Assembly: GCA_965226055.1 (NCBI GenBank)
Contig: CBDDCA010000006.1
Location: forward strand, 258,251-322,250
Direction of reading: 5' to 3'
Source: Spirochaetia bacterium
Lineage (GTDB): Bacteria; Spirochaetota; Spirochaetia; WTKD01; G963693115
DNA: 64,000 bases
Part shown: positions 1,791 to 56,190 of the stretch, piece by piece
Position numbering within the stretch: the stretch's first letter is position 1
Layout: every line of letters starts with the position of its first letter
Position numbers and translations under genes: made by a program
The notes under the pieces: model-generated
What the model was told of the DNA's origin: nothing
The model's database searches: none
What the model saw: only the letters and a program-made list of their open reading frames with translations

Positions 1791-4043
1791 ATGAAGTTAA
1801 ATATATTCTATTTATTTTTTATATTTCTTGTGTTTTCACTTTTTACTTGTGAAGATATAAAGGTTAATAGTAAGGAAAAAGCCACCGCACCAGCAGAGGC
1901 ACGCAGTGTTACAGCAAGCCACACCGATACAAGTATAACTATATCATGGCAAGCCCCTACCCTTACAAGCATACACACAAAAGCAAATGGAGAAAGGCTT
2001 ACAACGACAGATGTATCGTACAAAGTATACAGAGTAGCAAAAGGAAGTGATGCCCGAAGTATAGCCCAGATTAAAACAGCAGACACGAACCCGATAGCAG
2101 TAGCAAAAGGAACAACAAGCACAACTATAAGTAACCTTACTGAAAATACCACCTATGAAATAGTAGTACAATCAGTCAATGCAACAGATAGTACACAAGT
2201 CTCTACAGGCATGCGAATAGAAGTTACTACCCTTGCTACTAATCAAGCAACCGCACCAGCAGAGGCACGCAGTGTTACGGGAAGTCCTACCGATACCAGT
2301 ATAGGCATATCATGGCAAGCACCTGCCCTTACAAGCACACACAAAAAAGCAGATGGAGAAAGGCTCACAACAGCAGATGTATCGTACAAAGTATACAGAG
2401 TAGCAAAAGGAAGCAAAGCCCGCACAATAGCCCAGATTAAAACAGCAGACACAAACCCGATAGCAGTAGCAAAAGGAACAACAAGCACAACTATAAGTAA
2501 CCTTACTATAAATACTACCTATGAAATAGTAGTACAATCAGTCAATGCCACTGACCCAACAAAAATCTCTACAGGTACACTAATAGAAGTAACTACCAAT
2601 AGTCAAGCAACTGCACCAGCAGAGGCACGCAGTGTTACAGCAAACCACACCGATACCAGTACAACTATATCATGGCAACCCCCAATACTTACAAGCACAC
2701 ACAAAAAAGCAGATGGAGAAAGGCTCACAACGGCAGATGTATCGTATAAAGTATACAGAGTAGCAAAAGGAAAGAATGCCCGCACAATAGCCCAGATTAA
2801 AACAGCAGACACAAACCCAATAGCAGTTGCAAAAGGAATAACAAGCACAACTATAAGTAACCTTACTGGAAATACTCCCTATGAAATAGTAGTACAATCA
2901 GTCAATGCCACCGACCCAACAAAAACCTCTACAGGAGTACAAATAGAAATAACTACCAATAGTCAAGCAACTGCACCAGACGAGACACACAGTGTTACAG
3001 CAAGCCACACCGATACCAGTACAACTATATCATGGCAAGCCCCTACCCTTACAAGCAGTCACAAGAAAGCAGATGGAAGATGGCTCACAACAGCAGATGT
3101 ATCGTACAAAGTATACAGAGTAGCAAAAGGAAAGAATGCTCGCACAATAGCCCAAATTAAAACAGCAGACACGAACCCGATAGCAGTAGCAAAAGGAACA
3201 ACAAGCACAACTATAAGTAACCTTACTGGAAATACCACCTATGAAATAGTAGTACAATCAGTCAATGCTACCGACCCAACAAAAACCTCTACAGGAGTAC
3301 AAATAGAAATAACCACCCCAAGCCAAGCTACCATACCAGAAGAAATCCGCTTTTTAGGAAGAAGTCGAACCGATGACAGTATATCCCTATCATGGATATA
3401 TATTTATATTACTCCAGGCAAGAAAGCAACTGGACAAAAGCTTACAGCGGCAGATATATCGTATAAAATATATAGAGTAGCAAAAGGAAAGAATGCCCGC
3501 ACAGTAGCCCAGATTAAAACAGCAGACACAAACCCGATAACAGTAGCAAAAGGAATAACAAGCACAACTATAAGTAACCTTACTATAAATACTACCTATG
3601 AAATAGTAGTACAATCAGTCAATGAAACGGACACTACAAAAGTATCTACAGGAGTACGAATAGAAGCAAATACCGATAGTCAGGCAACCGCACCAGAAGA
3701 TACACAAAGTGTTGGAGTAGATACGACCACCGATGACAGTATAAGAATATCATGGGAAGCCCCTACCCTTACAAGCACACACAAAAAAGCAGATGGAGGA
3801 AGGCTCACAACAGCAGATGTATCATATAAAGTATACAGAGTAGCAAAAGGAAGGTATCCCCGCACAATAGCCCAGATTAAAACAGCAGACACGAACCCGA
3901 TAACAGTAGCAAAAGGAATAACCCACGCAACTATAAGTAACCTTAATGGAAATACTACCTATGAAATAGTAATACAATCAGTGAATGCAACGGACACTAC
4001 AAAAGTATCTACAGGAATACGATTAGAAGTAAATACCAAATAA
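1791..4043 (+). CDS. Surface lipoprotein with six tandem fibronectin type III-like repeats
   Basis: Signal peptide with lipobox (..FSLFTC). A ~120-aa unit repeats six times: 'ATAPAEARSVT..TDTSI.ISWQAP...ADGERLTTADVSYKVYRVAKG...TTYEIVVQSVNATD', which is FN3-like (SW..P, Y.V, TxYEfxVxavN). Confidence 0.8.
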   Translation: MKLNIFYLFFIFLVFSLFTCEDIKVNSKEKATAPAEARSVTASHTDTSITISWQAPTLTSIHTKANGERLTTTDVSYKVYRVAKGSDARSIAQIKTADTNPIAVAKGTTSTTISNLTENTTYEIVVQSVNATDSTQVSTGMRIEVTTLATNQATAPAEARSVTGSPTDTSIGISWQAPALTSTHKKADGERLTTADVSYKVYRVAKGSKARTIAQIKTADTNPIAVAKGTTSTTISNLTINTTYEIVVQSVNATDPTKISTGTLIEVTTNSQATAPAEARSVTANHTDTSTTISWQPPILTSTHKKADGERLTTADVSYKVYRVAKGKNARTIAQIKTADTNPIAVAKGITSTTISNLTGNTPYEIVVQSVNATDPTKTSTGVQIEITTNSQATAPDETHSVTASHTDTSTTISWQAPTLTSSHKKADGRWLTTADVSYKVYRVAKGKNARTIAQIKTADTNPIAVAKGTTSTTISNLTGNTTYEIVVQSVNATDPTKTSTGVQIEITTPSQATIPEEIRFLGRSRTDDSISLSWIYIYITPGKKATGQKLTAADISYKIYRVAKGKNARTVAQIKTADTNPITVAKGITSTTISNLTINTTYEIVVQSVNETDTTKVSTGVRIEANTDSQATAPEDTQSVGVDTTTDDSIRISWEAPTLTSTHKKADGGRLTTADVSYKVYRVAKGRYPRTIAQIKTADTNPITVAKGITHATISNLNGNTTYEIVIQSVNATDTTKVSTGIRLEVNTK
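1881..4040 (+). repeat. Six in-frame tandem repeats with a 360-bp period (366/360/360/360/357/357 bp), more than 90% nucleotide identity among units 1-4
   Basis: Unit starts ('gca(a/c)c(c/t)gcaccagcagaggcacgcagt') at 1881, 2247, 2607, 2967, 3327 and 3684. The reverse strand produces periodic spurious 75-aa ORFs. Confidence 0.9.
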
Positions 4044-8649: not shown

Positions 8650-9642
8650 CTATTTACTTGTGTATTTTATAGAAACCCATATCCGAAACGAACTACTTTT
8701 TCCGTTATATTTACCACTTCCTTGAAAGCTAATTGTATACAATTTCTGTAATAGCTTCCCTTTTGCTTTACCACTTATTGTACCAGAGCTAGTATCAAAA
8801 CCTAATCCTGTCTCATCGTTAATATCAGGAGAAATAGCATAGCGACCAGATATATCACTGGGATTTGCATCAAAACTCACCGATATATCAGTATCTTTGT
8901 CAGCAATAGCCATAATGAACGGTAAGCCATTATACGGTTCTATGGTAACAGCATCATTCCCGCTTGGAGTAAATACATAGCTCCAGCCAGGAAGTTTTAC
9001 ACTCGTAACACCTGAATTATCAAATATACCTTCTACTCTAATAGTATCTTGTATATCCCATTCCTCTAAATCATGCTTAAACCCAGTGGCTCCCTTAAAC
9101 ATATTAATCATATTATTGATAGTATTGTTTACTTTCCACGTTGATATATCTTGATTAAACTGTGTCGCTCCTGCAAACATACTGTTCATATTTTTCACTT
9201 TCTCTACTTTCCACACTGATATGTCTTGATCAAACTGTGTTGCTCCTGCAAACATACCACTCATATCGGTAACATTACTGACATTCCAGCTTGATATATC
9301 TCCATTAAAATGAGTATTTCCCTTAAACATATTGCTCATATCGGTAACATTACTGACATTCCAGCTCGATATATCTCCATTAAAATTAGCTAAATCTCCA
9401 TCACTACTAAATAAACCACTCAAATCTGTCATATTACTTATATCTATATTTGAGAGATCTGTTTCCCATCCATGAAATGAAACTTCACGTTTTATATTAT
9501 TAGCTAGTACTTGTTTATCCGATGGATGATAGACAAAAGACAAGTCTGTAGATTCCTGACTACAACTAAAAAGCAGTAGCAATCCCATTCCTATCATCCA
9601 TAGAAAATAATACTTATATGCTTGAGCATTACATTGTCTCAT
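8650..9642 (-). CDS. DUF285-repeat lipoprotein with a C-terminal He_PIG-like Ig domain. A small paralog of the 2822-aa neighbour
   Basis: Lipobox (LLLFSC). Four repeats of '..F.G...FN.DIS.W.VS.VT.M..MF' (Mycoplasma-type DUF285), then 'SPDINDETGLGFDTSSGTISGKAKG' (the TGxISG signature). Confidence 0.7.
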   Translation of the reverse strand: MRQCNAQAYKYYFLWMIGMGLLLLFSCSQESTDLSFVYHPSDKQVLANNIKREVSFHGWETDLSNIDISNMTDLSGLFSSDGDLANFNGDISSWNVSNVTDMSNMFKGNTHFNGDISSWNVSNVTDMSGMFAGATQFDQDISVWKVEKVKNMNSMFAGATQFNQDISTWKVNNTINNMINMFKGATGFKHDLEEWDIQDTIRVEGIFDNSGVTSVKLPGWSYVFTPSGNDAVTIEPYNGLPFIMAIADKDTDISVSFDANPSDISGRYAISPDINDETGLGFDTSSGTISGKAKGKLLQKLYTISFQGSGKYNGKSSSFRIWVSIKYTSK

Positions 9643-9930: not shown

Positions 9931-10536
9931 TTATATTCTACTGAATAAGATACTGAACAAAATACCAAATCCTGACAACATGATAGTCATTTGAATTCCA
10001 AAAAACCAGTACATAATAGTACTGTTTGTTTTTATCGATTCTTTCATAGATTTTATTTCTGTTGTCAAATTTTCCCGTACACTATTTATTTCTGTTGTCA
10101 AATTTTCCCGTACACTGCTTATCTCTGTTGTTAAGTTCTCCCGTATGCTGTTTATTTCTGTTGTTAAGTTCTCCCGTACACTGTTTATTTCTGTTGTTAA
10201 TTTCTTCTCTACACTGTTTATTTCTGTTGTCAAATTTTCCCGTACACTGCTTATCTCTGTTGTCAAATTCTCTCGTACGCTGTTTATTTCTGTTGTCAAA
10301 TTTTCCCGTACACTATTTATTTCTATTGTCAAATTTTCCCGTACACTGCTTATCTCTGCTGTTAAGTTCTCCCGTACACTGCTTATCTCTGCTGTTAAGT
10401 TCTCCCGTACGCTGTTTATTTCTGTTGTTAATTTCTTCTCTACACTGTTTATTTTTTCTAATAAAAAATCATATTGTGTAATTGGAGTTGCAAGCATTCC
10501 ATCTTCATTTGTAATTTTCTCTTGTACTGCTCTCAT
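9931..10536 (-). CDS. Bdr-like tail-anchored coiled-coil protein built on 11-aa (33-bp) tandem repeats
   Basis: Central '(T)EI(N/S)SVRENLT' repeated about 12 times and a C-terminal hydrophobic anchor (IMYWFFGIQMTIMLSGFGILFSILF). The architecture resembles Borrelia Bdr/DUF1640-type proteins. Confidence 0.6.
   Translation of the reverse strand: MRAVQEKITNEDGMLATPITQYDFLLEKINSVEKKLTTEINSVRENLTAEISSVRENLTAEISSVRENLTIEINSVRENLTTEINSVRENLTTEISSVRENLTTEINSVEKKLTTEINSVRENLTTEINSIRENLTTEISSVRENLTTEINSVRENLTTEIKSMKESIKTNSTIMYWFFGIQMTIMLSGFGILFSILFSRI
10050..10460 (-). repeat. About 12.5 contiguous 33-bp tandem repeats, coding and in frame
   Basis: Consensus unit 'ttatttctgttgtcaaattttcccgtacactg(c/t)' with alternating variants (gtcaaatt / gttaagttctc). 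Confidence 0.9.
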
Positions 10537-10604: not shown

Positions 10605-13600
10605 CTAGCGACAATTCCCCGCTGGAAGACACCATCCAGGCAAGTTTTTTACAGCTGTACCCTTAAACATATCTGTTTTTATCACACTGTTTGCTACATT
10701 CCAGTTACTCAAATTCTGATTAAAAACACTAGCATCAGCAAACATACTGCTCATATCGGTAACATTACTTACATTCCAATTCCCTATATCTTGATTAAAA
10801 ACATCAGCATCATAAAACATATACCTCATATTGGCAACATTACTTACATTCCAATTCCCTATATCCTGATTAAAAGCTTCAGCATCATAAAACATACTGT
10901 TCATATTGGTAACTTTACCTACATTCCATTTTGATATATCTCCATTGAAAAATTCTGTTTGATTAAACATATTGCTCATATCGGTAACTTTACTTACATT
11001 CCATAACGATACATCTCCATTAAAGTATTGTTTATCATAAAATAGCCCTCCCATGTCTGTTATGTTACTTGTATCTATCATGTTTAAGTTAGGGGCAAAT
11101 CCTTGTGCTTTTATCTCTGCTTCTATGGCTTCCTCTAACTTTTTTTTGTTTTGAGGAGTGTACTTGTATTCTATCGTAACTGATATTGTTTTTGATCTAC
11201 TGGCATCAGTATATGTATGTATTGCTTTCCCATCGCTCTTTTTACTGGTAAACTCTATAGTATAGGTCTTTGAAGCTGCTTTGGTAGGAGTACCTGATAT
11301 CTTCCCAGTATCAGCATCAAAGCTCAACCCTGTATCTGCTGTTATATCCGGACTTATACTAAAAATTCCTGCTATAGCGGGTGTTTTAGTAAGTGTTACT
11401 TCTTTATCTTTCGTTAATGGTACTCCTACATATGCCTTTACACTACCTCCTATACTAGCTCTACTTGCACTTATATTAAAATACCATGTAGGGAGTATTA
11501 CTACAGCTGTATGCTCAAACATATTTGTTTTACTCACAGTTTTATCCACATTCCATGTTTCAAGTTCTTTATTAAATACACTTGCTCCCTTAAACATATT
11601 GCTCATATCGGTAACTTTACTGACATTCCACCCTGTTATATCTTGATTAAACTTACTTGCATTAATAAACATACTACGCATATCGGTAACTTTACTGACA
11701 TTCCACCCTGTTATATCTTGATTAAACTCACTTGCCTTAAAAAACATACTGCTCATATTGGTAACGCTACTGACATTCCATCTTGATATATTTCCATTAA
11801 AATTAACTTCACTGGAAAATAGACTACTCATATCTTTTATTTTACTTGTATCTATCATAGTGAGATCGGGGGTATTTCCTTGTACAGTTATCTCTGTATT
11901 TATAGCCTGCTGTAATTCTGCTTTATTATTAGGAATATGCTTATACTCTTTAATAGTAACTAACACTTTTATAGTCCGCCTATCATCAATATATTTATGT
12001 ATGAGTGTTTTATCAGCCTCTTCACTTCTAAACTGTATGGTATACTCAGTCTGTGAAGTTACTGTGGTGGGAGTACCTGATATTATGCCAGTACTAGTAT
12101 CAAAGTTCAACCCTGTATTTGTTGTTATATTTGGACTTATACTAAAACTCCCTGTTATAACGGGCGTTTTGGTAAGTATTATTTTTTGACTGTCTAGGAG
12201 TGATAAATCTCTATAGACACTTATAGTAGTACTATTTGCACTTATACTAAAATACCATGTAGGCAACTTTTTTACTGCTGAAGCAAGAAACATATCTGTT
12301 TTTGTCACACCGCTATCTACATTCCAACTTTCAAGATCTTGGTTAAATGCATTTGCGTTATTAAACATAAAAAACATATTCGTAACACTACTGACATTCC
12401 AATTTGATATATCCCCATTAAATTTTTGTGCTCCTGCAAATATACTGCTCATATTGGTAACTTTACTTACATCCCATTTCGATACATTTCCATTAAAATG
12501 ATCTTTACTGGAAAATATATTACTCATATCTGTTATAGCACTCGTATCTATTATGTTTAGATTAGCGGTATTTCCTTGTGCATTTATCTCATCATCTACA
12601 GCCTTCTGTAATTCTGTTTTATCACTGGGCGTATACTTATACTGACTTATAGTTACATGTATCTCTATTGTCCGATCAGTATATGTATGTATTGTTTTCC
12701 CATTCTTTTCACTGGTAAACTGTATAGTATACTTAGTTTGTGAAGCTAATATAGTGGGAGTACCCGATATTGAGCCAGTGTTAGTATCAAAGTTCAACCC
12801 TGTATTTGTTGTTATATTTGGACTTATACTAAAACTCCCTGTTACATTAGACGTTTTAGTGAGTGTTATTGTTTCAGTGTTACTTAGCGATAAATCTTTG
12901 TATCCAGTTATAGTAGTTCTGTTTGCATTTATACTAAAATACCATGTAGGCAACTTCTTTACTACTGTACTTTCAAACATATTTGTTTTTATTACACTGC
13001 TTTTTACATTCCAGTTTTCCAGATTTGCACTAAACTTTGATGCAAAATTGAACATAGTTTCCATATTTGTAACTTTACTTACAGTCCAATTTTTTATATC
13101 TTGGTTAAAGCTTTGTGCAGATAGAAACATAGCTCTCATATTTATAACTTTACTTACAGTCCAATTTTTTATATCTTGGTTAAAGGCATGTGCTCCAGCA
13201 AATAAACTCTCCATATTTGTAACAGCACTTACATTCCATCCTGATATATCTCCATTAAATTTATTCGCATTCAAAAACATATTGCTCATATTTGTAACTT
13301 TACTTACATTCCATTTTGATATATCTCCATTGAAATTAGCTTTATCCTCAAATAGATTACTCATATCTGTTATAACACTTGTGTCTATTATGTTGAGATT
13401 AGCAGTATCTCCTTGTGCAGCTATCTCATCATCTACAGCTTTCTGTAACTCTGTTTTATTACTAGGAGTATGCTTATAACTTGTGGTAACTGATATTTTT
13501 ATTGTTCTATCAGTATATTTATGTGTCGCTGGATTACCTTTACTATCAGTAAAGCTACTGGTAAACTCTATAGTATAATCAGTCTTTGAAGCTGCTTTAG

Positions 13601-16600
13601 TAGGAGTTCCTGATATTGTGCCAGTGCTAGTATTAAAATCTAACCCTGTATTTACTGTTATATCTGGACTTATACTAAAACTTCCTGTTATATCAGGCGT
13701 TTTGGTAAAAGTTATTTCTTTATTTTTTGCAAGTGGAACATTTACATATGTATTTATACTACGATTACTTGCACTTATATTAAAATACCATGTAGGCAAC
13801 TTTGCTACTGCGGTATTCTTAAACATATCTGTTTTTGTCACACCACTTGCTACATTCCAGCTTTCAAGATCTTTTTCAAATGCATTTGCTCCACTGAGCA
13901 TACTACTCATATTGGTGACAGCATTTACATCCCATTCGGATATATCTCCATTGAAAGTAATATTATCCTTAAATAGATCACTCATATCTGTTATTTTACT
14001 TGTATCTATTATGTTGAGATTAGCTTCGTTTCCTTGTACATTTATCTCTGTAGTTATAGCTTGCTTTAATTCTGTTTTATTATTAGGAGTATGCTTATAC
14101 CTACGTATCTCTACCGATATTTTTATTGTCCTATCAGTATCAATATATTTATGTATTACTGTTCCATCTGTCTTTTTACTTGTAAACTGTATGGTATATT
14201 CAGTCTTTGAGATTGCTGTAAGAGGAGTACCCGATATTTTACCAGTGCTAGGATCAAAATCTAAACCTGTATTTTTTGCTATATCTGGACTAACGCTAAA
14301 ACTTCCTGTTATATTAGGTGTTTTGGTAAGGGTTATTTCTTTATCTGTTGCTAATGGTATGTTTTTATATGCAATTATCTTATTATCACTTGCACTTATG
14401 CTAAAATACCATGTAGGCAACTTTGCTACTGCGGTATTCTTAAATATATCTGTTTTTGTCACAGTCCCATCGCTTGCTACATTCCAATCTTCCAGATCTT
14501 GGTTAAATTTTGTCGCTCCCAAGAACATCTTGCCTATATCGGTAACGCTACTTATATTCCAGCTTGATATATCTTGATTAAACGCTGCCGCTGACGAAAA
14601 CATCTGATGCATATTCGTAACTTTTCCTACCTTCCAATTTGATATATCTTTATTAAAAATGGTTGCTCCCGAAAACATAGCTGTCATATTTGTAACTTTT
14701 CTTACATCCCAGCCCGACATATTGCTATTAAAATTTGCTGCTCCTAAAAACATTCGATTCATATCCGTAACTGCCCCTACATTCCACCCCGATATATCTT
14801 TATTGAAACTGGTTGCTCCCGAAAACATATTCCCCATATCATTCACATTTTGTACCTTCCAATTTGATATATCTTGATTAAAACTTGTCGCATTCCAAAA
14901 CATACCATTCATGTTAGTAACACTTTGTACCTTCCAGTTTGATATATCTTGATTAAAACTACCTGCATAATAAAACATACTGCTCATATCAATAACATTA
15001 CTTACATTCCAACCAGAAATATCCCCATTAAATGCAGCAGCTTGATTAAACATATGACTCATATCAGTAACATTACTTACATCCCACTCAGATATTTTAC
15101 CATTAAAAGTAGTATTACTATTAAATAATCCACTCATATCATCAATCTTACTAGTATCAATTATATTTAAGTCAGCAGTATTTCCTTGTAATCCTATCTC
15201 AGTATTTATATTGTTTATTAATTCTAATTTACCAGTAGGAGTATACTTATGCCCTATAGTAACTGTTATCGTTATTGTCCTATCAGTATAGGCATATATT
15301 GTTTTCCCATTCTTTTCACTGGTAAACTGTATGGTGTAAGGAGTTTTTGAAGCTACCTTTGTAGGAGTACCCGATATTGTCCCAGAGCTAGAATCAAAAC
15401 TCAAGCCTGTATTTGTTGTGATACTTGGACTTATACTAAAACTTCCTGCTATACTAGGTGTTTTGGTAACTTTTATTTCTTCACTTGCTCCTAATTTTAT
15501 ACGTGCTTGCCCTGTCAGAGCAGACTTATTTGCACTTATACTAAAATACCATGTAGGTAACTTTGCTACTGCGGTATTCTTAAACATATCTGTTTTTGTC
15601 ACAGTCCCATCGCTTGCCACCTTCCAGCTTTCAAGATCTTTGTCAAATGCACTTGCTCCTAAAAACATGCTACTCATATCAGCAACCTTGCTTACATTCC
15701 ATCCCGATACATTTTGATTGAAACTTGTTGCTCCTGAAAACATATTACTCATATCGGTAACGCTACTTACATCCCATCCCGATATATCTCCATTGAAATT
15801 AGCTTTATTCTCAAATATATTACTCATATCTGTTATATTACTTGTATTTATTATGTTTAAGTTAGCAGTATTTCCTTGTACTTCTATCTCCTTTTTTATG
15901 TTTTCCAATAACTCTGTTTTGTTGTTAGGAGTATAAAGATAAGTATTTATTGCTACTGATAGAGTGATGGATCTAGTATCGACATAAGTATATGTCGCTG
16001 GATTACCTGAGCTATCAGTAAAGCTACTGGTAAACTGTATGGTGTAAGAAGTTTGTGAAGCTGCCTCGGTAGGAGTACCCGATATTGTGCCAGTTCTAGT
16101 ATCAAAATCTAACCCTGTATTTGCTTTGATATCTGGACTTATACTGAAACTTCCTGCTATAAGGGGTGTCCTTGTCAGTATTATATCTGTTATTGGTACT
16201 TTTACTCCCTCATGTATACTATTGCTGCTTGCGCTTATACTAAAATACCATGTAGGTAATTTTGCTACTGCAGTATTCGTAAACATATTTGTTTTTGTCT
16301 TAAGGCTTGCTATATTCCAGTTTTCAATATCTCCATTAAATTTTATCGCCCCACTCAACATATTTTCCATATCAGTGACTTTACTTACATTCCACTCGGA
16401 TATATTTCCATTGAAAGTAGTGTTATCCTTAAATAGATCACTCATATCTGTTATGTTACTTGTATCTATTATGTTGAGATTAGCAGTATTTCCTTGTGCA
16501 TTTATCTCTGTAGTTATAGCTTGCTTTAATTCTGCTATATTATTGGGAGTATGCTTATATTTATGTATCTCTACTGATATTGTTATTGTTCTATCAGTAT

Positions 16601-19073
16601 AGGTATGTGTTGCTAAAGCACCTGTACTACCAGTAAAGCTACTGGTAAACTGTATGGTGTAAGAAGTTTGTGAAACTGCTTTGGTAGGAGTGCCTGATAT
16701 TGTCCCAGTGCTAGTATTAAAACTCAACCCTGTATTTGCTGTTATATCTGGACTAATACTAAAATTTCCTGCTATATCAGGCGTTTTGCTAAGGGTTATT
16801 TCTTCATTTTTTGCTAGCGGTATTCCTCTATATACATCTATACTAGCACTATTTGACTTTATGCTAAAATACCATGTAGGTAATTTTGCTACTGCGGTAT
16901 TCTTAAATATATCTGTTTTTGTCACAGCGATTGCTACATTCCAGCCTTCAAGATCTTGTGTAAACTTAGAAGCACCAGAAAACATGCTACTCATATTGGT
17001 AACCTTGCTTACATTCCATCCCGACACATTTTGATTGAAACTTGTTGCTCCTAAAAACATACTGCTCATATCGGCAACTTTACTTACATTCCATCCCGAT
17101 ACATTTTGATTGAAACTTGTTGCTCCTAAAAACATACTGCTCATATCGGTAACTTTACTTACATTCCATTTCGATATGTCTCCATTAAAACTTGTTGCTC
17201 CTGAAAACATACTGCTCATATCGGTAACTTTACTTACATTCCATTTCGATATATCTCCATTGAAAGTAGTGTTATCCTTAAATAGCCTACTCATATCTGT
17301 TATAAGACTCGTATTTATTATGTTTAGATTAGCAGTATTTCCTTGCAATCCTACCTCTGTTTTTATAGCTTCCAATAATTCTGCTTTATTTTTTGGCTTA
17401 TACTCTATAGTGAGCAATATTTCTATTGTCCTATCAGTATCAGTATAGGTATGTATTTCTGTCCTATCAGAGGAGGTACTTGTAAATGTTATAATATACT
17501 CAGTCTCTGAGGCTACCTTTGTAGGAGTACCTGATATTGTGCCAGTACTAGTATCAAAACTCAACCCTATACTCGTTATATCTGGCTTTATACCAAATTT
17601 TCCTGTTATATCAGGCGTTTTGCTAAGAGTTATTTTTTCATTATCTGCTAGTGATACCCCTTTATATACAGTGAGCTCATCAACATTAGCACTTATGCTA
17701 AAATACCATGTAGGCAATTTTGCTACTGCGGTATTTGTAAACATATCTTTTTTTGTCACAGTGCTTGCTACATTCCAGCCTTCAAGATCTTTATCAAATG
17801 CACTTGCTCCTGAAAACATACCATCCATATCTGTAATATTACTTACCTTCCACTTTGATATGTCTCCATTGAAACTTGTTGCTCCTGCAAACATATTACT
17901 CATATCGGTAACATTGCTTACATCCCACAATGATATATCTCTATTAAAGGTAGTGTCATCCTTAAATAGATCATGCATATCTTTTACAGCACTTGTATTT
18001 ATATAGTTAAAATTATCTACATCAGTATTTTTAATTGCTTCTATTAATTCGTTACGTGTTTTTACTATAGCAGTAAACACCGATACATATATAGAGAACT
18101 GGCTAGACTTTCCTAAGTAACTTCCATCCCCTGTAAAACGAATTGTATATTTTCTTCGTATACCATTTTCTTTATCCTTCAATAACCTTATTGCAGTGCC
18201 ATATATTTCTCCATTATTGTCCTTCATCTCCAATCCTGTATCTTCCGTAAGAGTTGTCGTTTTTCCATCAGTACTATTAAATTCAATACTCCATGTACCA
18301 GTAATTCCTGGAGGGCTTGTTGCAATATTGATTGGCATTAAAGGAACATTCAAGCTCGACTTGATTAACTGTTCATTATCATACCTATCTGTGATAGAGT
18401 TTCCATCACGCACAAGAGTAAATACATAATGCCAACTAGGAATACTTGTTGCAGGTACATTAGCTCCCTTAAATATATCTTGTATATTTACTGAATCTGC
18501 TACCTGCCATTTCTCTAAATCATACTGAAACACTGTTGCTTTATTAAACATGTTACTCATATCGGTAACCTTGCTCACATTCCAGCCTGATATATCTTGA
18601 TTAAAACTTGCTGCGGCTTCAAACATGTTACTCATATCGGTAACCTTGCTCACATTCCAGCCTGATATATTTTGATTAAAACTCGTTGCTCCCTTAAACA
18701 GATTACTCATATTAGTAACATTACTTACATTCCAGCCTGATATATTTCCATTAAAGGTAGTATTTCCTTCAAACATACTGCTCATATCAGTAATATTGCT
18801 TACATCCCAACTTGATATATCACCTGAAAAATTGGAAAATTCACCATCACCTTTGAATAAGCCGCTTATATCTTTTACTTTACTTGTATCTATAGTAGAG
18901 AGATCTGCTGCATTTCCGCGGGAGGCAATTTCTCGCTTAATGTTTTCAATAAGCGATTCTCTACTATCAGGAGAGTAAATAAAGTCTAAACTTAAAGATT
19001 TTTCTGGATCACAACCAGATACCAAAAAAGCGAAACATAAAAATAGCCAAAATATAAAAAATTGATACTTCAT
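10605..19073 (-). CDS. Giant 2822-aa modular surface lipoprotein: about 10 modules, each a DUF285 repeat block plus a He_PIG-type Ig-like domain
   Basis: Lipobox (FLVSGC). Each module reads '..NTANLNIIDTS.ITDMS.LF', then 3-8 repeats of 'F.GATSFNQDIS.WNVS.VTDMS.MF', then 'AVAKLPTWYFSISA...ITLTKTP.I(A/T)GSFSISPDIT.NTGLSFDTSTGTISGTPT...YTIQFTS'. Confidence 0.85.
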   Translation of the reverse strand: MKYQFFIFWLFLCFAFLVSGCDPEKSLSLDFIYSPDSRESLIENIKREIASRGNAADLSTIDTSKVKDISGLFKGDGEFSNFSGDISSWDVSNITDMSSMFEGNTTFNGNISGWNVSNVTNMSNLFKGATSFNQNISGWNVSKVTDMSNMFEAAASFNQDISGWNVSKVTDMSNMFNKATVFQYDLEKWQVADSVNIQDIFKGANVPATSIPSWHYVFTLVRDGNSITDRYDNEQLIKSSLNVPLMPINIATSPPGITGTWSIEFNSTDGKTTTLTEDTGLEMKDNNGEIYGTAIRLLKDKENGIRRKYTIRFTGDGSYLGKSSQFSIYVSVFTAIVKTRNELIEAIKNTDVDNFNYINTSAVKDMHDLFKDDTTFNRDISLWDVSNVTDMSNMFAGATSFNGDISKWKVSNITDMDGMFSGASAFDKDLEGWNVASTVTKKDMFTNTAVAKLPTWYFSISANVDELTVYKGVSLADNEKITLSKTPDITGKFGIKPDITSIGLSFDTSTGTISGTPTKVASETEYIITFTSTSSDRTEIHTYTDTDRTIEILLTIEYKPKNKAELLEAIKTEVGLQGNTANLNIINTSLITDMSRLFKDNTTFNGDISKWNVSKVTDMSSMFSGATSFNGDISKWNVSKVTDMSSMFLGATSFNQNVSGWNVSKVADMSSMFLGATSFNQNVSGWNVSKVTNMSSMFSGASKFTQDLEGWNVAIAVTKTDIFKNTAVAKLPTWYFSIKSNSASIDVYRGIPLAKNEEITLSKTPDIAGNFSISPDITANTGLSFNTSTGTISGTPTKAVSQTSYTIQFTSSFTGSTGALATHTYTDRTITISVEIHKYKHTPNNIAELKQAITTEINAQGNTANLNIIDTSNITDMSDLFKDNTTFNGNISEWNVSKVTDMENMLSGAIKFNGDIENWNIASLKTKTNMFTNTAVAKLPTWYFSISASSNSIHEGVKVPITDIILTRTPLIAGSFSISPDIKANTGLDFDTRTGTISGTPTEAASQTSYTIQFTSSFTDSSGNPATYTYVDTRSITLSVAINTYLYTPNNKTELLENIKKEIEVQGNTANLNIINTSNITDMSNIFENKANFNGDISGWDVSSVTDMSNMFSGATSFNQNVSGWNVSKVADMSSMFLGASAFDKDLESWKVASDGTVTKTDMFKNTAVAKLPTWYFSISANKSALTGQARIKLGASEEIKVTKTPSIAGSFSISPSITTNTGLSFDSSSGTISGTPTKVASKTPYTIQFTSEKNGKTIYAYTDRTITITVTIGHKYTPTGKLELINNINTEIGLQGNTADLNIIDTSKIDDMSGLFNSNTTFNGKISEWDVSNVTDMSHMFNQAAAFNGDISGWNVSNVIDMSSMFYYAGSFNQDISNWKVQSVTNMNGMFWNATSFNQDISNWKVQNVNDMGNMFSGATSFNKDISGWNVGAVTDMNRMFLGAANFNSNMSGWDVRKVTNMTAMFSGATIFNKDISNWKVGKVTNMHQMFSSAAAFNQDISSWNISSVTDIGKMFLGATKFNQDLEDWNVASDGTVTKTDIFKNTAVAKLPTWYFSISASDNKIIAYKNIPLATDKEITLTKTPNITGSFSVSPDIAKNTGLDFDPSTGKISGTPLTAISKTEYTIQFTSKKTDGTVIHKYIDTDRTIKISVEIRRYKHTPNNKTELKQAITTEINVQGNEANLNIIDTSKITDMSDLFKDNITFNGDISEWDVNAVTNMSSMLSGANAFEKDLESWNVASGVTKTDMFKNTAVAKLPTWYFNISASNRSINTYVNVPLAKNKEITFTKTPDITGSFSISPDITVNTGLDFNTSTGTISGTPTKAASKTDYTIEFTSSFTDSKGNPATHKYTDRTIKISVTTSYKHTPSNKTELQKAVDDEIAAQGDTANLNIIDTSVITDMSNLFEDKANFNGDISKWNVSKVTNMSNMFLNANKFNGDISGWNVSAVTNMESLFAGAHAFNQDIKNWTVSKVINMRAMFLSAQSFNQDIKNWTVSKVTNMETMFNFASKFSANLENWNVKSSVIKTNMFESTVVKKLPTWYFSINANRTTITGYKDLSLSNTETITLTKTSNVTGSFSISPNITTNTGLNFDTNTGSISGTPTILASQTKYTIQFTSEKNGKTIHTYTDRTIEIHVTISQYKYTPSDKTELQKAVDDEINAQGNTANLNIIDTSAITDMSNIFSSKDHFNGNVSKWDVSKVTNMSSIFAGAQKFNGDISNWNVSSVTNMFFMFNNANAFNQDLESWNVDSGVTKTDMFLASAVKKLPTWYFSISANSTTISVYRDLSLLDSQKIILTKTPVITGSFSISPNITTNTGLNFDTSTGIISGTPTTVTSQTEYTIQFRSEEADKTLIHKYIDDRRTIKVLVTIKEYKHIPNNKAELQQAINTEITVQGNTPDLTMIDTSKIKDMSSLFSSEVNFNGNISRWNVSSVTNMSSMFFKASEFNQDITGWNVSKVTDMRSMFINASKFNQDITGWNVSKVTDMSNMFKGASVFNKELETWNVDKTVSKTNMFEHTAVVILPTWYFNISASRASIGGSVKAYVGVPLTKDKEVTLTKTPAIAGIFSISPDITADTGLSFDADTGKISGTPTKAASKTYTIEFTSKKSDGKAIHTYTDASRSKTISVTIEYKYTPQNKKKLEEAIEAEIKAQGFAPNLNMIDTSNITDMGGLFYDKQYFNGDVSLWNVSKVTDMSNMFNQTEFFNGDISKWNVGKVTNMNSMFYDAEAFNQDIGNWNVSNVANMRYMFYDADVFNQDIGNWNVSNVTDMSSMFADASVFNQNLSNWNVANSVIKTDMFKGTAVKNLPGWCLPAGNCR

Positions 19074-19219: not shown

Positions 19220-19675
19220 TTATTTCTTACGTTTTGCTCGCGTACTCTTGGGTGTATTCTTCTGTTGTGTATCATTCTCATCATTCACCATGATAGTATT
19301 AAAATTGATAGGAGGCAGTAGTATTGGGGAAATGCCAGATTTTGCTGTTAATGAAGAAATATATTCTCTTACATAAGGAAAAAGAACAGCAGGAGCATCT
19401 TTTTTTGAAAATTCTTTCAATAATGCTATATTTGGTTCTTCTGCATCTTCTTGAAACTGTCCTGCACAAATAATTTCAATATGTAACGAGTTTTCTTCAT
19501 TTTGAATTGTAACCTTTAGTTCTACATATAGCATATTATTATCTTCATCTATTGAAGATTTTGCTTCCATCTGCGGATCAATTTCAGATGATTGTATAGT
19601 AGCAGCTCTCTGGAATACTACATGAGGAAATATAATAGAATGTATTCTAATACCAAGTGATTTATTTTTTTGCAT
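19220..19675 (-). CDS. secB: Protein-export chaperone SecB
   Basis: '..APAVLFPYVREYISSLTAKSGISPILLPPINFNTIM' matches the conserved SecB core (FPYaRe.is.l...gfPpl.LaPvNFdal). It has an acidic and basic C-terminal tail. Confidence 0.7.
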   Translation of the reverse strand: MQKNKSLGIRIHSIIFPHVVFQRAATIQSSEIDPQMEAKSSIDEDNNMLYVELKVTIQNEENSLHIEIICAGQFQEDAEEPNIALLKEFSKKDAPAVLFPYVREYISSLTAKSGISPILLPPINFNTIMVNDENDTQQKNTPKSTRAKRKK

Positions 19676-43044: not shown

Positions 43045-43990
43045 ATCTTATACCATATTTATCCCTTCCATTGAGGACGTACCCCCCCCCCCCCAATTTC
43101 CACAGCATGCCTTTTACAATATTCTTAAAAGATTGATATAACGAAGGTTTCATTTTTTTCTGTAATAATTTCTCTGGTAAAAAATATTGATGAAAATAAA
43201 ACCATACATCAAAAGGATGAGGAGGATCAATCATATGAAAATATTCGGGATATCCAATGGCAAGACGAGCATATATATTTTGTTCTACTCCAATAAATGT
43301 ACCATGAGAAGACATGTTATCCTTCAATGTATAGTAAAGATTATGTATTTTTAAGAGAATAGAGCTATGAATAAGAAATAAGCCTCCAACATGTTCTCTT
43401 GTTCGCAAGGTCAATGTAGCTATATTTTCTTTCTCCTTCGCATATTGTTGAACATCAAACCTTTGTTCTGTTTTTGTCATTACTACTTTATGGGGAGACA
43501 TAGTAGTTACTTTTTCTACATCAGGCCACTGTCTAATTTCTCTTGGTTTCAAATCGTAATCATACCTACGCTTTCTTCCTCTAAACGCTCCAATATCCAT
43601 CCACATAAACCACTGCGACCGAAACACATTTAACTCATACGCTTCTTTTACAAAATGTAATTTTTCGTTCCATATAATATACAGCTCAGGATCATGTATA
43701 TCTTTTTCTTTATTTTTTGCATGATGTTCTTGATACAATGCATAATGAGCATACTCATGAAGCTGATGAAATTCTTTTATAATAACAACAGTATTTTCTT
43801 GATACTTTTTCCTTAATCGTAAAAAATAGGGAGCATGCTCTTTATCAGTAAATATAACGAGCGGGAGTTTCATATTACAGAGAAAATTTTTTATCCACTG
43901 TTTATACATATCATCACTATGTTTTGATTTCTTAAGACGATAATATGCAGTCACTATTGTGAGACTATTCTTAACAATACTTTCCTCCAA
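43031..43990 (-). CDS. HtrL/YibB-family putative glycosyltransferase, copy 1. It has a poly-G tract near its 3' end
   Basis: 'SLTIVTAYYRLKKS...' has HtrL_YibB-like N-terminal topology. It is about 96% identical to the 44115-45119 protein up to '...MLWKLGGGG', after which the tails differ. Confidence 0.6.
   Translation of the reverse strand: MEESIVKNSLTIVTAYYRLKKSKHSDDMYKQWIKNFLCNMKLPLVIFTDKEHAPYFLRLRKKYQENTVVIIKEFHQLHEYAHYALYQEHHAKNKEKDIHDPELYIIWNEKLHFVKEAYELNVFRSQWFMWMDIGAFRGRKRRYDYDLKPREIRQWPDVEKVTTMSPHKVVMTKTEQRFDVQQYAKEKENIATLTLRTREHVGGLFLIHSSILLKIHNLYYTLKDNMSSHGTFIGVEQNIYARLAIGYPEYFHMIDPPHPFDVWFYFHQYFLPEKLLQKKMKPSLYQSFKNIVKGMLWKLGGGGYVLNGRDKYGIRYDSC
43082..43094 (-). repeat. Homopolymeric tract C13 on the + strand (G13 on the coding strand). 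It lies ~17 codons before the stop of HtrL copy 1
   Basis: Counted directly: 43081 'a', then 13 c, then 'aatttcc'. Confidence 0.95.
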
Positions 43991-44114: not shown

Positions 44115-45119
44115 TCAAAAATAAGACAAGATGCCATTAGTATACAACAAAAATTCTATTTTATAAGCAAACTCTCTTTCCTTCCTTATTATTATTCCAT
44201 TGGGGTGTACCCCCCCCCCCCCCAATTTCCACAGCATGCCTTTTACAATATTCTTAAAAGATTGATACAACGAAGGCTTTATTTTTTTCTGTAATAATTT
44301 CTCTGGTAAAAAATATTGATGAAAATAAAACCATACATCAAAAGCATGAGAAGGATCAATCATATGAAAATATTCAGGATATCCAATGGCAAGACGAGCA
44401 TATATATTTTGGTCTACTCCAATAAATGTACCATGAGAAAACATATTATCCTTCAATGTATAATAAAGATTATGTATTTTTAAGAGAATAGAGCTATGAA
44501 TAAGAAATAAGCCTCCAACATGTTCTCTTGTTCGCAAGGTCAATGTAGCTATATTTTCTTTCTCTTTCGCATATTGTTGAACATCAAACTCTTCCTCTGT
44601 TTTTATCATTACTGCTTTATGGGGAGACATAGTAGTTACTTTTTCTACATCAGGCCACTGTCTAATTTCTCTTGGTTTCAAATCGTAATCATACCTACGC
44701 TTTCTTCCTCTAAACGCTCCAATATCCATCCACATAAACCACTGCGACCGAAACACATTTAACTCATACGCTTCTTTTACAAAATGTAATTTTTCGTTCC
44801 ATATAATATACAGCTCAGGATCATGTATATCTTTTTGTATATCTTTTGCATGATGTTCTTGATACAATGCATAATGAGCATACTCATGAAGCTGATGAAA
44901 TTCTTTTATAATAACAACAGTATTTTCTTGATACTTTTTCCTTAATCGTAAAAAATAGGGAGCATGCTCTTTATCAGTAAATATAACGAGCGGGAGTTTC
45001 ATATTACAGAGAAAATTTTTTATCCACTGTTTATACATATCATCACTATGTTTTGATTTCTTAAGACGATAATATGCAGTCACTATTGTGAGACTATTCT
45101 TAGCAATACTTTCCTCCAA
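44115..45119 (-). CDS. HtrL/YibB-family putative glycosyltransferase, copy 2. It has a poly-G tract near its 3' end
   Basis: Tandem paralog of 43031-43990. It is identical over most of its length and diverges at only a few residues (e.g. KDIQKD vs KNKEKD; MIKTEEEFD vs MTKTEQRFD). Confidence 0.6.
   Translation of the reverse strand: MEESIAKNSLTIVTAYYRLKKSKHSDDMYKQWIKNFLCNMKLPLVIFTDKEHAPYFLRLRKKYQENTVVIIKEFHQLHEYAHYALYQEHHAKDIQKDIHDPELYIIWNEKLHFVKEAYELNVFRSQWFMWMDIGAFRGRKRRYDYDLKPREIRQWPDVEKVTTMSPHKAVMIKTEEEFDVQQYAKEKENIATLTLRTREHVGGLFLIHSSILLKIHNLYYTLKDNMFSHGTFIGVDQNIYARLAIGYPEYFHMIDPSHAFDVWFYFHQYFLPEKLLQKKIKPSLYQSFKNIVKGMLWKLGGGGVHPNGIIIRKEREFAYKIEFLLYTNGILSYF
44210..44223 (-). repeat. Homopolymeric tract C14 on the + strand (G14 on the coding strand) in HtrL copy 2
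   Basis: Counted directly: '...tggggtgta' then 14 c (44210-44223) then 'aatttcc'. This is one nucleotide longer than the tract in copy 1. Confidence 0.95.
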
Positions 45120-55864: not shown

Positions 55865-56137
55865 CTTAGTACAGAAAATAATAAGGAAATGATAATTACT
55901 CTTATGGCTGATAAATTTGAAATTGCTAAAGACGCAATGACTTATCGTCTGGGATTACAAAATAAATAGCTTTTTTATGATAGCCTAAAAAACTCTCTGT
56001 AATTGCCCATCATAGCAATACTACAAAAATTTTAATTTTTTACTATAATACTAGTGTATGATGATAACATACAATAATGAAACAAAAGGAGTATTTCTAT
56101 GAATGAAAATAGAGAGCTACAAAGTATGAAAAAAATC

Positions 56138-56152
56138 GGGGGGGGGGGGGGG
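56138..56152 (+). repeat. Homopolymeric G15 tract inside the 5' end of the lipoprotein reading frame (a candidate slipped-strand phase-variation switch)
   Basis: Counted directly: 'aaaaaatc' + 15 g + 'tacactc'. The upstream ATG at 56099 (with a GGAG RBS 8 nt upstream) reads MNENRELQSMKKIGGGGG and terminates at the TAA at 56177 in the current frame. Confidence 0.95.
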
Positions 56153-56190
56153 TACACTCTCGATATAAGCAAAACCTAACTATACTAGTA

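Follow-up and report, generated by a model that had tools for sequence, protein, structure and literature searches.

A probable fast-diverging, multivalent envelope lipoprotein of PARCEL repeats and Ig-like domains in an uncultured Spirochaetia bacterium

The 64,000-nucleotide stretch of DNA analysed here (the window) contains a giant gene that probably encodes a multivalent, fast-diverging, adhesin-like envelope lipoprotein, diversified by substitution, change in PARCEL-unit number and rare gene conversion. The gene is one minus-strand ORF of 2822 residues. An earlier sequence-only reading had described it as an 8.5-kb lipoprotein gene, and both the ORF and the lipobox at its N-terminus (MKYQFFIFWLFLCFAFLVSG/C, Cys21, read by eye from the translation) bear this out. 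We propose that Sec/SPII export and a lipid anchor would yield a 'beads-on-a-string' chain. In the cell envelope of this uncultured Spirochaetia bacterium, the chain would most likely act as a long, multivalent binder. It would have eleven short solenoids of LRR type, each with an N-cap helix, two to nine PARCEL repeats and a capping repeat, and ten Ig-like (He_PIG, cadherin/Rib-like) domains would serve as spacers between them. Three processes may diversify this chain, with module number and order stable throughout: rapid substitution at non-scaffold repeat positions and in the Ig domains, keeping the hydrophobic scaffold; in-register gain or loss of 25-aa units through slippage or unequal exchange between 75-nt units; and, rarely, short gene-conversion tracts between modules. 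The giant would be surface-exposed and ligand-binding, and an outside agent (host, phage or predator) may drive its fast evolution.

Both domain assignments of the sequence-only reading held up in a Pfam scan. DUF285 (PF03382) scored 1553 bits in 18 stretches (cut-off 25) and He_PIG (PF05345) 130.8 bits in eight (cut-off 24), while the NCBIfam PARCEL repeat TIGR02167 reached 429.7 bits in 25 stretches (cut-off 30). These matches are far beyond chance. The signature G.ISGTP occurs nine times. According to the repeat register, 46 repeats of exactly 25 aa are arranged in 11 PARCEL blocks of 5, 3, 5, 2, 3, 9, 2, 5, 3, 4 and 5 repeats, in that order; the range of three to eight per block given earlier was too narrow. 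The Ig-like domains comprise nine He_PIG domains and one divergent N-terminal domain. Module lengths, with boundaries set at LP[TG]W, span 207–380 aa and are thus not the uniform ~280 aa that had been described. Spacing between He_PIG domains is 110–280 residues, with a PARCEL block between each pair, and LPGWCLPAGNCR forms the C-terminus after module 9. The Mbov_0838 model NF045896 (433 positions) reached a summed 1056 bits (cut-off 500), its best stretch covering model positions 235–381, the repeat part alone. As the giant has no full-length match to this model and passes its cut-off only by summing 17 partial stretches, the score reflects shared repeats and not orthology.

Table 1. Features at the giant lipoprotein locus, in window coordinates.
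Feature	Position	Strand	Basis or remark
Giant lipoprotein gene, 2822 aa	10605..19073	-	ORF list and translation, Pfam DUF285/He_PIG
Signal peptide, lipobox LVSG/C (Cys21), Asp at +2	19011..19073	-	by-eye reading of translation
PARCEL block 1, 5 x 25 aa, residues 76-200, preceded by N-cap helix region	18474..18848	-	repeat register
Divergent N-terminal Ig-like domain, residues ~212-335, no Pfam match	18069..18440	-	alignment with 330-aa paralog
PARCEL block 2, 3 repeats, residues 370-444	17742..17966	-	repeat register
Module 1: He_PIG Ig, N-cap helix, 5 PARCEL repeats	16884..17717	-	boundaries at LP[TG]W
Module 2: Ig + 2 repeats; conversion-tract site 16615-16666	16260..16883	-	
Module 3: Ig + 3 repeats; positional orthology lost	15561..16259	-	
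Module 4: Ig + 9 repeats; repeats 5-8 (14526-14825) without ortholog counterpart	14421..15560	-	
Module 5: Ig + 2 repeats; second conversion-tract site 14155-14203	13800..14420	-	
Module 6: Ig + 5 repeats	12954..13799	-	
Module 7: Ig + 3 repeats; one copy of 63-bp exact tract	12267..12953	-	
Module 8: Ig + 4 repeats; shares 63-bp exact tract with module 7	11496..12266	-	
Module 9: Ig + 5 repeats, last block 10668-11042; ortholog has 9 repeats	10644..11495	-	
Single-module lipoprotein paralog, 330 aa: N-cap, ~5 PARCEL repeats, Ig-like domain	8650..9642	-	
Divergent SecB-like gene directly upstream	19220..19675	-	Pfam SecB 47.5 bits; below all NCBIfam SecB cut-offs
Promoter-like TTGAAA-16-TAAATT	19149-19122	-	consensus scan; sequence conserved in ortholog
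Promoter-like TTGACA-16-TATATT, better match	19191-19164	-	consensus scan; segment absent from ortholog

An AlphaFold2 model of module 1 with the next Ig domain, built from a shallow alignment of the giant's own nine modules, had a pLDDT of 78.6 and the order Ig, helix, solenoid, Ig. The modelled Ig domains were beta-sandwiches matching Rib, cadherin and SraP modules. The PARCEL blocks are predicted to adopt an LRR-type solenoid fold with an N-cap helix; a search by sequence found no solved DUF285 structure. Anchored through the lipobox, these blocks may have an adhesive role.

We compared the giant with a syntenic ortholog (P0004, 2860 aa) in the Spirochaetia MAG OZ244590.1. This sister genome was the only one the genome collection yielded, so the comparison is one of two alleles. 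A metagenome scan for further strains with a conserved 856-aa anchor gene returned nothing, and one with the module alignment recovered only distant relatives at 39–56% identity. On the two longer contigs, L006 and L009, these relatives are not orthologs: they are small single-block DUF285 genes that lack a signal and stand in tandem arrays. The length variation anticipated for the gene was found between the two close genomes (2822 versus 2860 aa). The nine He_PIG modules are the same in number and order in both, and positional pairs are 84–93% identical at the nucleotide level, against an off-diagonal mean of 76%. Module 3 is the exception, as it is no closer to its positional counterpart (76%, paralog level; local dS about 0.40) than to paralogous modules. 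Every indel over 8 aa adds or removes four PARCEL units of 25 aa in register, and only two blocks are affected, with repeat counts of 9 versus 5 and 5 versus 9; all other blocks have equal counts. The extra copies in the last block of the ortholog are 84–88% identical to one another, which fits tandem duplication. In this pair of genomes, the sites and modes of change in a giant repeat protein can be seen cleanly.

The giant diverges much faster than its surroundings. Flanking genes are 97–99% identical (95–98% in nucleotides), with dN/dS of 0.02–0.14 and dS of 0.09–0.19 over nine genes. The giant and its ortholog share 78.5% identity, with a dN of 0.129, a dS of 0.210 similar to that of the flanking genes, and a dN/dS of 0.62 (bootstrap 0.54–0.70). 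Its first 100 codons have a dN/dS of only 0.20, and the lipobox is identical in the ortholog. The 330-aa paralog has a dN/dS of 0.68 to its counterpart, which is 303 aa long. Three envelope proteins at the locus combine roughly tenfold faster protein divergence with repeat-number change, while the housekeeping neighbours are nearly frozen. Within the repeats, scaffold residues F1, F7, W14, V16, M22 and M25 are 93–100% conserved between the orthologs (entropy ≤1.15 bits). Conservation drops to 52–62% at positions 2, 5, 13, 15, 18 and 21, and entropy is 2.6–3.1 bits at positions 2, 5, 6, 13 and 24. In the register partition, ω is 0.32 at scaffold and 0.80 at variable positions (95% CI 0.58–1.14), the latter value being biased upward as these positions were partly picked via the ortholog comparison. 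Positive selection (ω > 1) was not demonstrated in this partition of two alleles.

Relaxed constraint and diversifying selection account equally well for the ω data. Under relaxed constraint, the giant might be a structural or space-filling envelope protein without a specific ligand, such as a scaffold in the periplasm or outer leaflet or a coat resembling an S-layer, and its repeat changes would be neutral slippage. In line with this, ω is below 1 in every partition, with that interval at the variable positions, and fairly uniform (0.59–0.81) over Ig, linker and PARCEL parts, and neighbouring FN3 and coiled-coil repeat proteins also drift in copy number. We nevertheless consider this reading unlikely, because the 8.5-kb ORF is intact in both lineages at 13% nucleotide divergence, purifying selection clearly acts on the scaffold and the tenfold dN excess is confined to envelope proteins. 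LRR solenoids are also typically binding modules, which speaks against a protein without a ligand.

The sequence-only reading had instead proposed size and antigenic variation by unequal crossing-over of near-identical modules, supplemented by donor cassettes. The nine Ig-plus-linker units proved to be 53–71% identical in amino acids and 68–82% in nucleotides (mean 73.7%), so the modules are not near-identical. A 14-aa motif said to recur nine times, AVAKLPTWYFSISA, has four copies, although its core LPTWYF does occur nine times. The longest exact DNA repeat inside the gene is 63 bp, and five of the 11 pairs of exact repeats of at least 40 bp are adjacent 75-nt repeat units. Between the genomes, 2131 site patterns support orthology and 151 concerted change, the latter matching the homoplasy baseline of 141 crossed patterns. 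General concerted evolution between modules is thus absent, and of the proposed recombination between modules only rare exchange stands. This includes a conversion tract of ~75 nt that homogenised modules 2 and 5 in the ortholog (17 concerted versus 3 crossed sites, p = 0.0026, uncorrected for the 36 pairs) and the lost positional orthology and raised dS of module 3; sharing between modules 2 and 3 is suggestive. The inter-module exact tracts of 40–63 bp also favour the earlier proposal, the 63-bp sites of modules 7 and 8 being 100% identical here versus 85.7% in the ortholog, as does the length difference between the genomes. This comparison of exact tracts was confined to those that mapped well, since small indels threw the ungapped alignments of some others out of register (values of about 18–45%). 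However, with the same nine modules in unchanged order and every large indel made of 25-aa units within blocks, the two genomes lend no support to an expansion, contraction or reshuffling of whole modules.

The proposed donors exist but would make poor substrates for gene conversion. The single-module paralog is 42% identical to the first 335 residues of the giant over 332 aa and has its own lipobox; its C-terminal Ig-like part, with a sub-threshold He_PIG score of 16.5 bits, aligns with the N-terminal Ig-like domain of the giant. The Pfam scan also placed the DUF285 block claimed for the lipoprotein ORF at 56191–60906 at its C-terminus. The giant is 67–77% identical to these donors in nucleotides, and its longest exact matches are 30 bp to the paralog and 17 bp to the 56191 gene. 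No recombinase gene was found among the neighbours of the giant locus, which likewise has no SSR switch, invertible element or silent cassettes flanked by long near-identical sequence. Altogether, we regard variation through module recombination as unlikely. In mycoplasma lipoproteins of the Vsp, Vlp and Vpma type, variation relies on short repeats of high identity, on multigene clusters equipped with site-specific recombinases, or on SSRs in promoters. The giant shares with them length change via in-frame repeat gain and loss but has none of these devices. For genome scanning, this means that a repetitive protein need not be encoded by recombination-prone DNA, and that inter-module DNA identity and an ortholog comparison are needed before a gene is called a substrate of recombinational variation.

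The giant belongs to a type of surface protein that is already known and widely annotated, and it is not a cassette-shuffling system. It had been described as without a match to a characterised protein; indeed none of the characterised proteins matches it, but giants with DUF285 and He_PIG domains are numerous among uncharacterised database proteins, under the NCBI name 'BspA family leucine-rich repeat surface protein'. An exhaustive search of representative proteins found its Ig type in 1691, many with 20–50 tandem copies. At least three giants of the same kind lie on its own contig and at least seven in the sister genome, all with lipoboxes, so it would be one of a lineage-specific family of giants. 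The same-genome paralogs P0017 and P0024 are 32–33% identical to it in protein sequence. It seems to us distinctly improbable that these proteins are LRR-based envelope receptors whose lineage-specific repertoire diversifies adaptively. If they were, positive selection at exposed positions of the repeats, gain and loss of PARCEL units in register and micro gene conversion among modules would re-tune the binding faces, and the family would be a germ-line counterpart, in bacteria, of variable LRR receptors; its uncultured spirochaete host may itself be host-associated. An assembly artefact, with a mis-joined or collapsed repeat region and no real 8.5-kb ORF, is highly improbable: repeat-rich genes are often mis-assembled and the giant forms a one-member cluster known from one contig, but its repeats are too diverged to collapse (≤82% between modules, exact tract ≤63 bp), its reading frame is open throughout and an independent sister assembly has the collinear 2860-aa ortholog at the same syntenic position.

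One of the closest known counterparts of the giant is the group of PARCEL/DUF285 lipoproteins found in the Mycoplasma mycoides cluster, such as LppQ and LppC (Roske et al. 2010, PMC2996958). Both have the 25-residue repeat (PF03382/TIGR02167), a lipoprotein signal, a conserved hydrophobic scaffold with variable hydrophilic positions, repeat numbers that differ between close relatives, and long antisense ORFs in the repeat DNA (PMC2996958). The mycoplasma proteins have one tract in 300–900 aa (PMC2996958), whereas the giant interleaves eleven blocks with Ig domains in 2822 aa. Its host is a diderm spirochaete, unlike the M. mycoides cluster, and spirochaetes are never mentioned in the text of that paper (PMC2996958). 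Also unlike those genes (PMC2996958), it has no adjacent mobile element and no dyad symmetry above shuffles: in a test less elaborate than the MEME analysis in the original PARCEL paper, self-reverse-complement scores were 8.0 for the consensus unit (9.5 ± 2.4 in shuffles) and 12.0 for the nine-repeat block (11.8 ± 1.9), and a repeat finder reported one weak 20-nt palindrome. Little is known about the function of PARCEL/DUF285 proteins; to this family the giant adds a spirochaete lineage, a predicted fold and a map that separates scaffold from variable positions.

Of the DUF285 proteins in the literature found, MbovP0145 of Mycoplasma bovis has been studied best by experiment; it is a secreted lipoprotein reported to bind beta-actin and induce IL-8 (PMC8707762). 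Like the giant it carries DUF285 domains behind an SPII signal, but it is small, has two DUF285 regions and no Ig domain, and comes from an animal pathogen (PMC8707762); nothing suggests that the two share a ligand. TpLRR of T. pallidum (6mlx), the Leptospira LRR proteins (4u08, 6lx0) and BspA of Tannerella forsythia have one solenoid versus eleven in the giant. Their repeat is LxxLxLxxN rather than 25 aa on an F..F..W.V..M..M scaffold, and in contrast to them the giant matched no classical LRR family, LRR_5 (PF13306) included, at E ≤ 0.01 in the Pfam scan.

With SraP (cadherin-like), Rib/alpha-C and the He_PIG tandem-array giants, the giant shares a long chain, an anchor and repeated Ig-like domains, as well as the fast evolution and repeat-number variation typical of fibrillar adhesins (PMC8286594). 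Monzon and Bateman define the stalk of this class by tandem copies of the same domain less than 35 residues apart (PMC8286594), a distance well exceeded by the He_PIG spacing of the giant. Its Ig domains are never in tandem, each being set apart by a putative binding solenoid. Consequently, the chain would lack both a continuous stalk and a sole adhesive tip at its end.

The giant locus is flanked by sugar-transport genes. Its GC content (0.31–0.35) is like that of the rest of the window and the nearest transposase gene is 36 kb away, so synteny, GC and neighbours gave no sign of a mobile-element link or horizontal transfer. The SecB-like gene holds the same position at the ortholog locus. A link between it and the giant would be conjectural, and we rejected a dedicated SecB or conserved accessory genes as a family feature because two paralogs, P0006 and P0012, have unrelated surroundings that include no SecB. 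Asp at +2 after the lipid-modified Cys predicts inner-membrane retention by E. coli rules; spirochaete sorting rules differ. Both promoter-like sites lie in the 146-bp gap 5' of the giant and are consensus matches alone, which does not imply function. SSR phase variation of the giant was rejected, as its 5' region contains no SSR and no homopolymer of 8 nt or more; the upstream run is T7, versus T6 in the ortholog. The SSR switch in the window belongs to the 56191 gene, in which a G15 tract lies directly 3' of an upstream ATG.

The sequence-only reading, in which near-identical modules made the giant lipoprotein a substrate for recombinational size and antigenic variation, was partly confirmed as an observation and partly supported as an interpretation. 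The gene lies exactly where it had been placed, and profile searches bore out both proposed domain families: the protein matches Pfam profiles DUF285 (PF03382; 1553 bits, 18 stretches) and He_PIG (PF05345; 130.8 bits, cut-off 24; 8 stretches), as well as the NCBIfam PARCEL profile (TIGR02167; 429.7 bits, 25 stretches). By these scores, the DUF285 and He_PIG matches are confirmed as far exceeding chance. The N-terminus, judged by eye from the translation, is a lipoprotein signal (MKYQFFIFWLFLCFAFLVSG followed by C, Cys21). The score on NF045896 'Mbov_0838' does not show orthology, as the cut-off was passed only by summing 17 partial stretches that match the model's repeat part.

Anchoring the repeat register on the invariant Trp resolved 46 repeats of exactly 25 residues (consensus F.GA..FN.DIS.WNVSKVT.MS.M) in eleven blocks of 5, 3, 5, 2, 3, 9, 2, 5, 3, 4 and 5. 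LP[TG]W marks the bounds of these PARCEL blocks, and a variant capping repeat closes each one. After nine of them comes a He_PIG domain (signature G.ISGTP, seen nine times) and then a helical segment, YK.TP.NK.EL..AI..EI..QGN.ANLN.IDTS. Because stand-alone DUF285 genes on metagenome contigs begin with this same segment, it is the solenoid's N-cap and not a linker. A founder module takes up the first ~335 residues: the signal peptide and N-cap come first, then five repeats, then a divergent Ig-like domain that has no Pfam match. The small DUF285 gene nearby is indeed a single-module paralog: at 42% identity it aligns end to end with the founder module, and it carries a lipobox itself.

The modules proved neither uniform nor near-identical. 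Described as ~280 aa each, they range from 207 to 380 aa, and the nine Ig+N-cap units share 53-71% protein and 68-82% DNA identity (mean 73.7%). The longest exact DNA repeat within the gene is 63 bp, and of eleven exact repeat pairs of at least 40 bp, five are neighbouring 75-nt units. The string 'AVAKLPTWYFSISA', said to recur nine times, is present four times; only LPTWYF reaches nine.

The giant protein, from a 957-kb contig, forms a singleton cluster. Its nearest relative is a 2860-aa ortholog (P0004) at a fully syntenic locus on the 2.36-Mb chromosome OZ244590.1 ('MAG: Spirochaetia bacterium'), the sister genome. Both loci share the order sugar ABC transporter, GH4, ~850-aa CarboxypepD_reg-like protein, SecB-like, giant, coiled-coil repeat protein, small DUF285 lipoprotein, second ABC transporter and FN3 repeat protein. 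The global alignment of the two giants is collinear, with nine He_PIG modules in each, and all indels longer than eight residues fall inside two PARCEL blocks; the ortholog's blocks hold 5, 3, 5, 2, 3, 5, 2, 5, 3, 4 and 9 repeats. In the block after Ig4, the giant's first four repeats have partners in the ortholog's first four (81-92% nucleotide identity), and repeats 5-8 have no counterpart. Since repeats 5-8 are at most 81% identical to each other, they are old, and the simplest reading would be that the other lineage lost them by in-register deletion. The ortholog's extra copies in the last block are 84-88% identical among themselves, which would fit tandem duplication. Because the large indels are confined to two PARCEL blocks, size variation acts on the 75-nt unit within a block, not on the module. 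Length does differ, as had been proposed, but whole-module gain, loss or shuffling is not supported, as both proteins have nine collinear modules.

We compared modules between the orthologs at the nucleotide level. Identity was 84-93% on the diagonal and averaged 76% off it, and a site-pattern count on four sequences at a time, run for each of the 36 module pairs, gave 2131 sites of positional orthology, 151 'concerted' sites and 141 'crossed' sites (the homoplasy baseline); across these pairs there was no general concerted evolution. Modules 2 and 5 have 17 concerted versus 3 crossed sites (binomial p 0.0026, ~0.09 corrected for 36 pairs). Seven consecutive concerted sites lie in a ~75-nt tract that is nearly the same in the ortholog's modules 2 and 5 and differs between these modules in the window genome. 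For modules 2 and 3 the counts are 10 versus 2. Module 3 is 76% identical to its positional partner, no nearer than to paralogous modules, with a local dS of ~0.40, and at the protein level it matches other modules best. A 63-bp tract of modules 7 and 8 is 100% identical in the window genome and 85.7% in the ortholog. Short conversion tracts between modules thus occur, rarely, leaving module number unchanged; inter-module recombination stands in this form, but whole-module shuffling is not supported, given the diagonal and the orthology sites. The suggested donor cassettes, the small paralog and the DUF285 end of the 56191 gene, are implausible: their longest exact matches to the giant are 30 and 17 bp, at 67-77% identity. 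The giants P0017 and P0024 of the same genome share 32-33% protein identity with it.

Nei-Gojobori estimates for 13 ortholog pairs between both loci split three envelope proteins sharply from nine constrained genes. The nine transport, metabolic and SecB genes have protein identities of 96.7-99.4%, dN of 0.003-0.016, dS of 0.09-0.19 and dN/dS of 0.02-0.14. The giant is 78.5% identical to its ortholog (dN 0.129, dS 0.210, dN/dS 0.62, bootstrap 0.54-0.70); dN/dS is 0.68 for the small DUF285 paralog and 0.58 for the FN3 protein. As its dS is near background, the giant's divergence mostly reflects faster amino-acid change in place, not an imported distant allele. Codons 1-100 are constrained (ω 0.20), and the remainder varies between 0.24 and 1.46 across 100-codon windows; by part, ω is similar, at 0.67 for Ig, 0.62 for N-cap and 0.59 for PARCEL. 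Repeat scaffold positions F1, F7, W14, V16, M22 and M25 are 93-100% conserved between orthologs, and positions 2, 5, 13, 15, 18 and 21 just 52-62%. When repeat positions are partitioned, ω is 0.32 in the scaffold class, 0.49 in the intermediate class and 0.80 in the variable class (95% interval 0.58-1.14), the last biased upward, as its positions were picked partly from the ortholog comparison. Given that interval, positive selection in the repeats is not demonstrated, and relaxed constraint is a live alternative explanation for the giant's fast evolution.

As had been suggested, the structure of one module region was predicted. The AlphaFold2 model of residues 453-830 (mean pLDDT 78.6, pTM 0.66) runs from a beta-sandwich through a 15-residue helix and short beta bridges every 12-13 residues to a second beta-sandwich; built on a shallow alignment of the giant's own nine modules, it is indicative only. 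No PDB chain matched the giant by sequence, and Foldseek returned Ig-like matches alone, all weak (Rib-Long, cadherin EC domains). An exhaustive search found 1691 representative proteins with this Ig type, and many are giants in which it stands in 20-50 tandem copies; judged by these matches it is an ordinary one.

Other giants that combine DUF285 with He_PIG are on record in databases; among them are two on the contig of the window genome, six or more in the sister genome, and some from a further two large contigs. P0005, P0013, P0017 and P0024 all have a lipobox and the plan N-cap, repeats, [IL]P.W, Ig domain. Paralogs in the sister genome are scattered (0.17, 0.56 and 1.92 Mb) among unrelated neighbours. 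Where named by their source, such giants are 'BspA family leucine-rich repeat surface protein'. PARCEL was described as a 25-residue variable-number amphipathic repeat in surface lipoproteins, in a text that does not mention spirochaetes (PMC2996958). The dyad symmetry from which the PARCEL name derives is not detectable in the giant's repeat DNA; no mobile element adjoins the locus. Among the papers found, MbovP0145 is the best experimentally studied DUF285 protein (PMC8707762). In its alternating PARCEL/Ig architecture the protein is a lineage-specific form, elaborated from 'BspA-family/DUF285' giants that are widely annotated but uncharacterised.

The 146-bp gap upstream of the giant contains promoter-like matches, of which TTGAAA-16-TAAATT lies in sequence conserved across both genomes. 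The giant is best explained as a lipid-anchored protein in which Ig domains space out eleven small LRR-type binding solenoids. As to function and surface exposure, we infer that it would be a multivalent protein of the envelope, similar to an adhesin. Exposed residues and the number of repeats would drift or adapt quickly, with scaffold and module plan kept. By E. coli rules, Asp at +2 after the lipid-modified Cys would keep the protein at the inner membrane; sorting in spirochaetes follows different rules, and a place at the surface is putative. Because its 5' end has no long homopolymer, the giant is not an SSR switch; in the 56191 gene, by contrast, G15 follows an upstream ATG and is currently out of frame.

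Coordinates of features in the window and, where named, on other contigs
Feature	Position	Strand	Properties
FN3 protein gene	1791-4043	+	6.0 copies of 360-nt unit; 750 aa
FN3 protein gene, sister-genome locus L001	24781-28116		9.0 copies; 1111 aa
Small DUF285 paralog	8650-9642		330 aa
Coiled-coil (apolipoprotein-like) protein gene	9931-10536	-	33-nt (11-aa) tandem repeat, 12.2 copies; 201 aa
Coiled-coil protein gene, L001	18647-19327		~15.2 copies; 226 aa
Giant ORF (ORF list, translation)	10605-19073	-	2822 codons
Antisense ORFs in giant	12754-13479; 13618-14577	+	241 aa; 319 aa
Concerted sites, modules 2 and 5	16615-16666; 14155-14203
Giant repeats 5-8, block after Ig4	14526-14825
SecB-like gene	19220-19675	-	Pfam SecB 47.5 bits, below every NCBIfam SecB cut-off
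ORFs near C13/C14	42088-43044; 43031-43990; 44115-45119	-
C13 and C14 homopolymers	43082-43094; 44210-44223	+	poly-G on minus coding strand
Methyltransferase and overlapping ORF	49836-51969	-	D12-class N6-adenine; 428 aa, no Pfam match
IS30-like transposase gene	54892-55857	+	HTH_38 + rve
ATG upstream of G15	56126
G15 homopolymer	56138-56152	+	12 nt after ATG
56191 gene, ORF	56191-60906		FN3 domains + C-terminal DUF285 block
P0006 locus, sister-genome stretch L003	5035-16034		giant paralog
DUF285 gene arrays, metagenome contigs L006; L009	2469-9548; 311-6377		7-8 genes, 237-335 aa, ~10 nt apart

At 15 G, the frame of the ATG upstream of the 56191 gene ends at 18 codons; a tract of 16 or 13 G would let it read MKKIGGGGG.VHSRYKQNLTILVVLAMTTLVLVGC, a full lipoprotein signal, and continue directly into the ORF. 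The region at 56126-56210 looks like a slipped-strand phase switch, now OFF. The IS30-like transposase gene lies immediately upstream of the 56191 gene. The C13 and C14 tracts, near the starts of three ORFs (the first ~40-50 nt upstream of ATG), are possible further phase switches.

True whole-domain copy-number variation, as predicted for the giant, is found in the neighbouring FN3 protein gene, whose unit copies are ~84-86% alike. The coiled-coil gene just downstream of the giant also differs in copy number between the genomes. In both genomes the gene next upstream of the giant is the SecB-like one. Its product might act as a chaperone for export of the 2822-aa preprotein, but no such gene adjoins the paralogous giants elsewhere. 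P0006 follows directly on a ClpB-like AAA+ chaperone gene (926 aa); it is the second giant of this family with a chaperone-type gene in front, which may be coincidence.

The antisense ORFs inside the giant resemble a feature that the PARCEL paper notes for repeat-coding DNA (PMC2996958), and codon composition most likely accounts for them; they would not be real genes. The metagenome arrays run head to tail; five genes scanned each have a single DUF285 block, and one translated gene has the same N-cap helix and a helical C-terminal domain, with no signal peptide or Ig domain. It looks like the giant's module in an unfused and apparently cytoplasmic form. The methyltransferase and its overlapping ORF, in DNA of GC 0.234 (50-52 kb) versus ~0.33 elsewhere, are probably a horizontally acquired restriction-modification pair. 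Strong AT skew (+0.38 to +0.44) goes with raised GC (0.41-0.44) at 2000-4000 and 56000-60000, where the two FN3-repeat genes lie on the plus strand with an A-rich coding strand.
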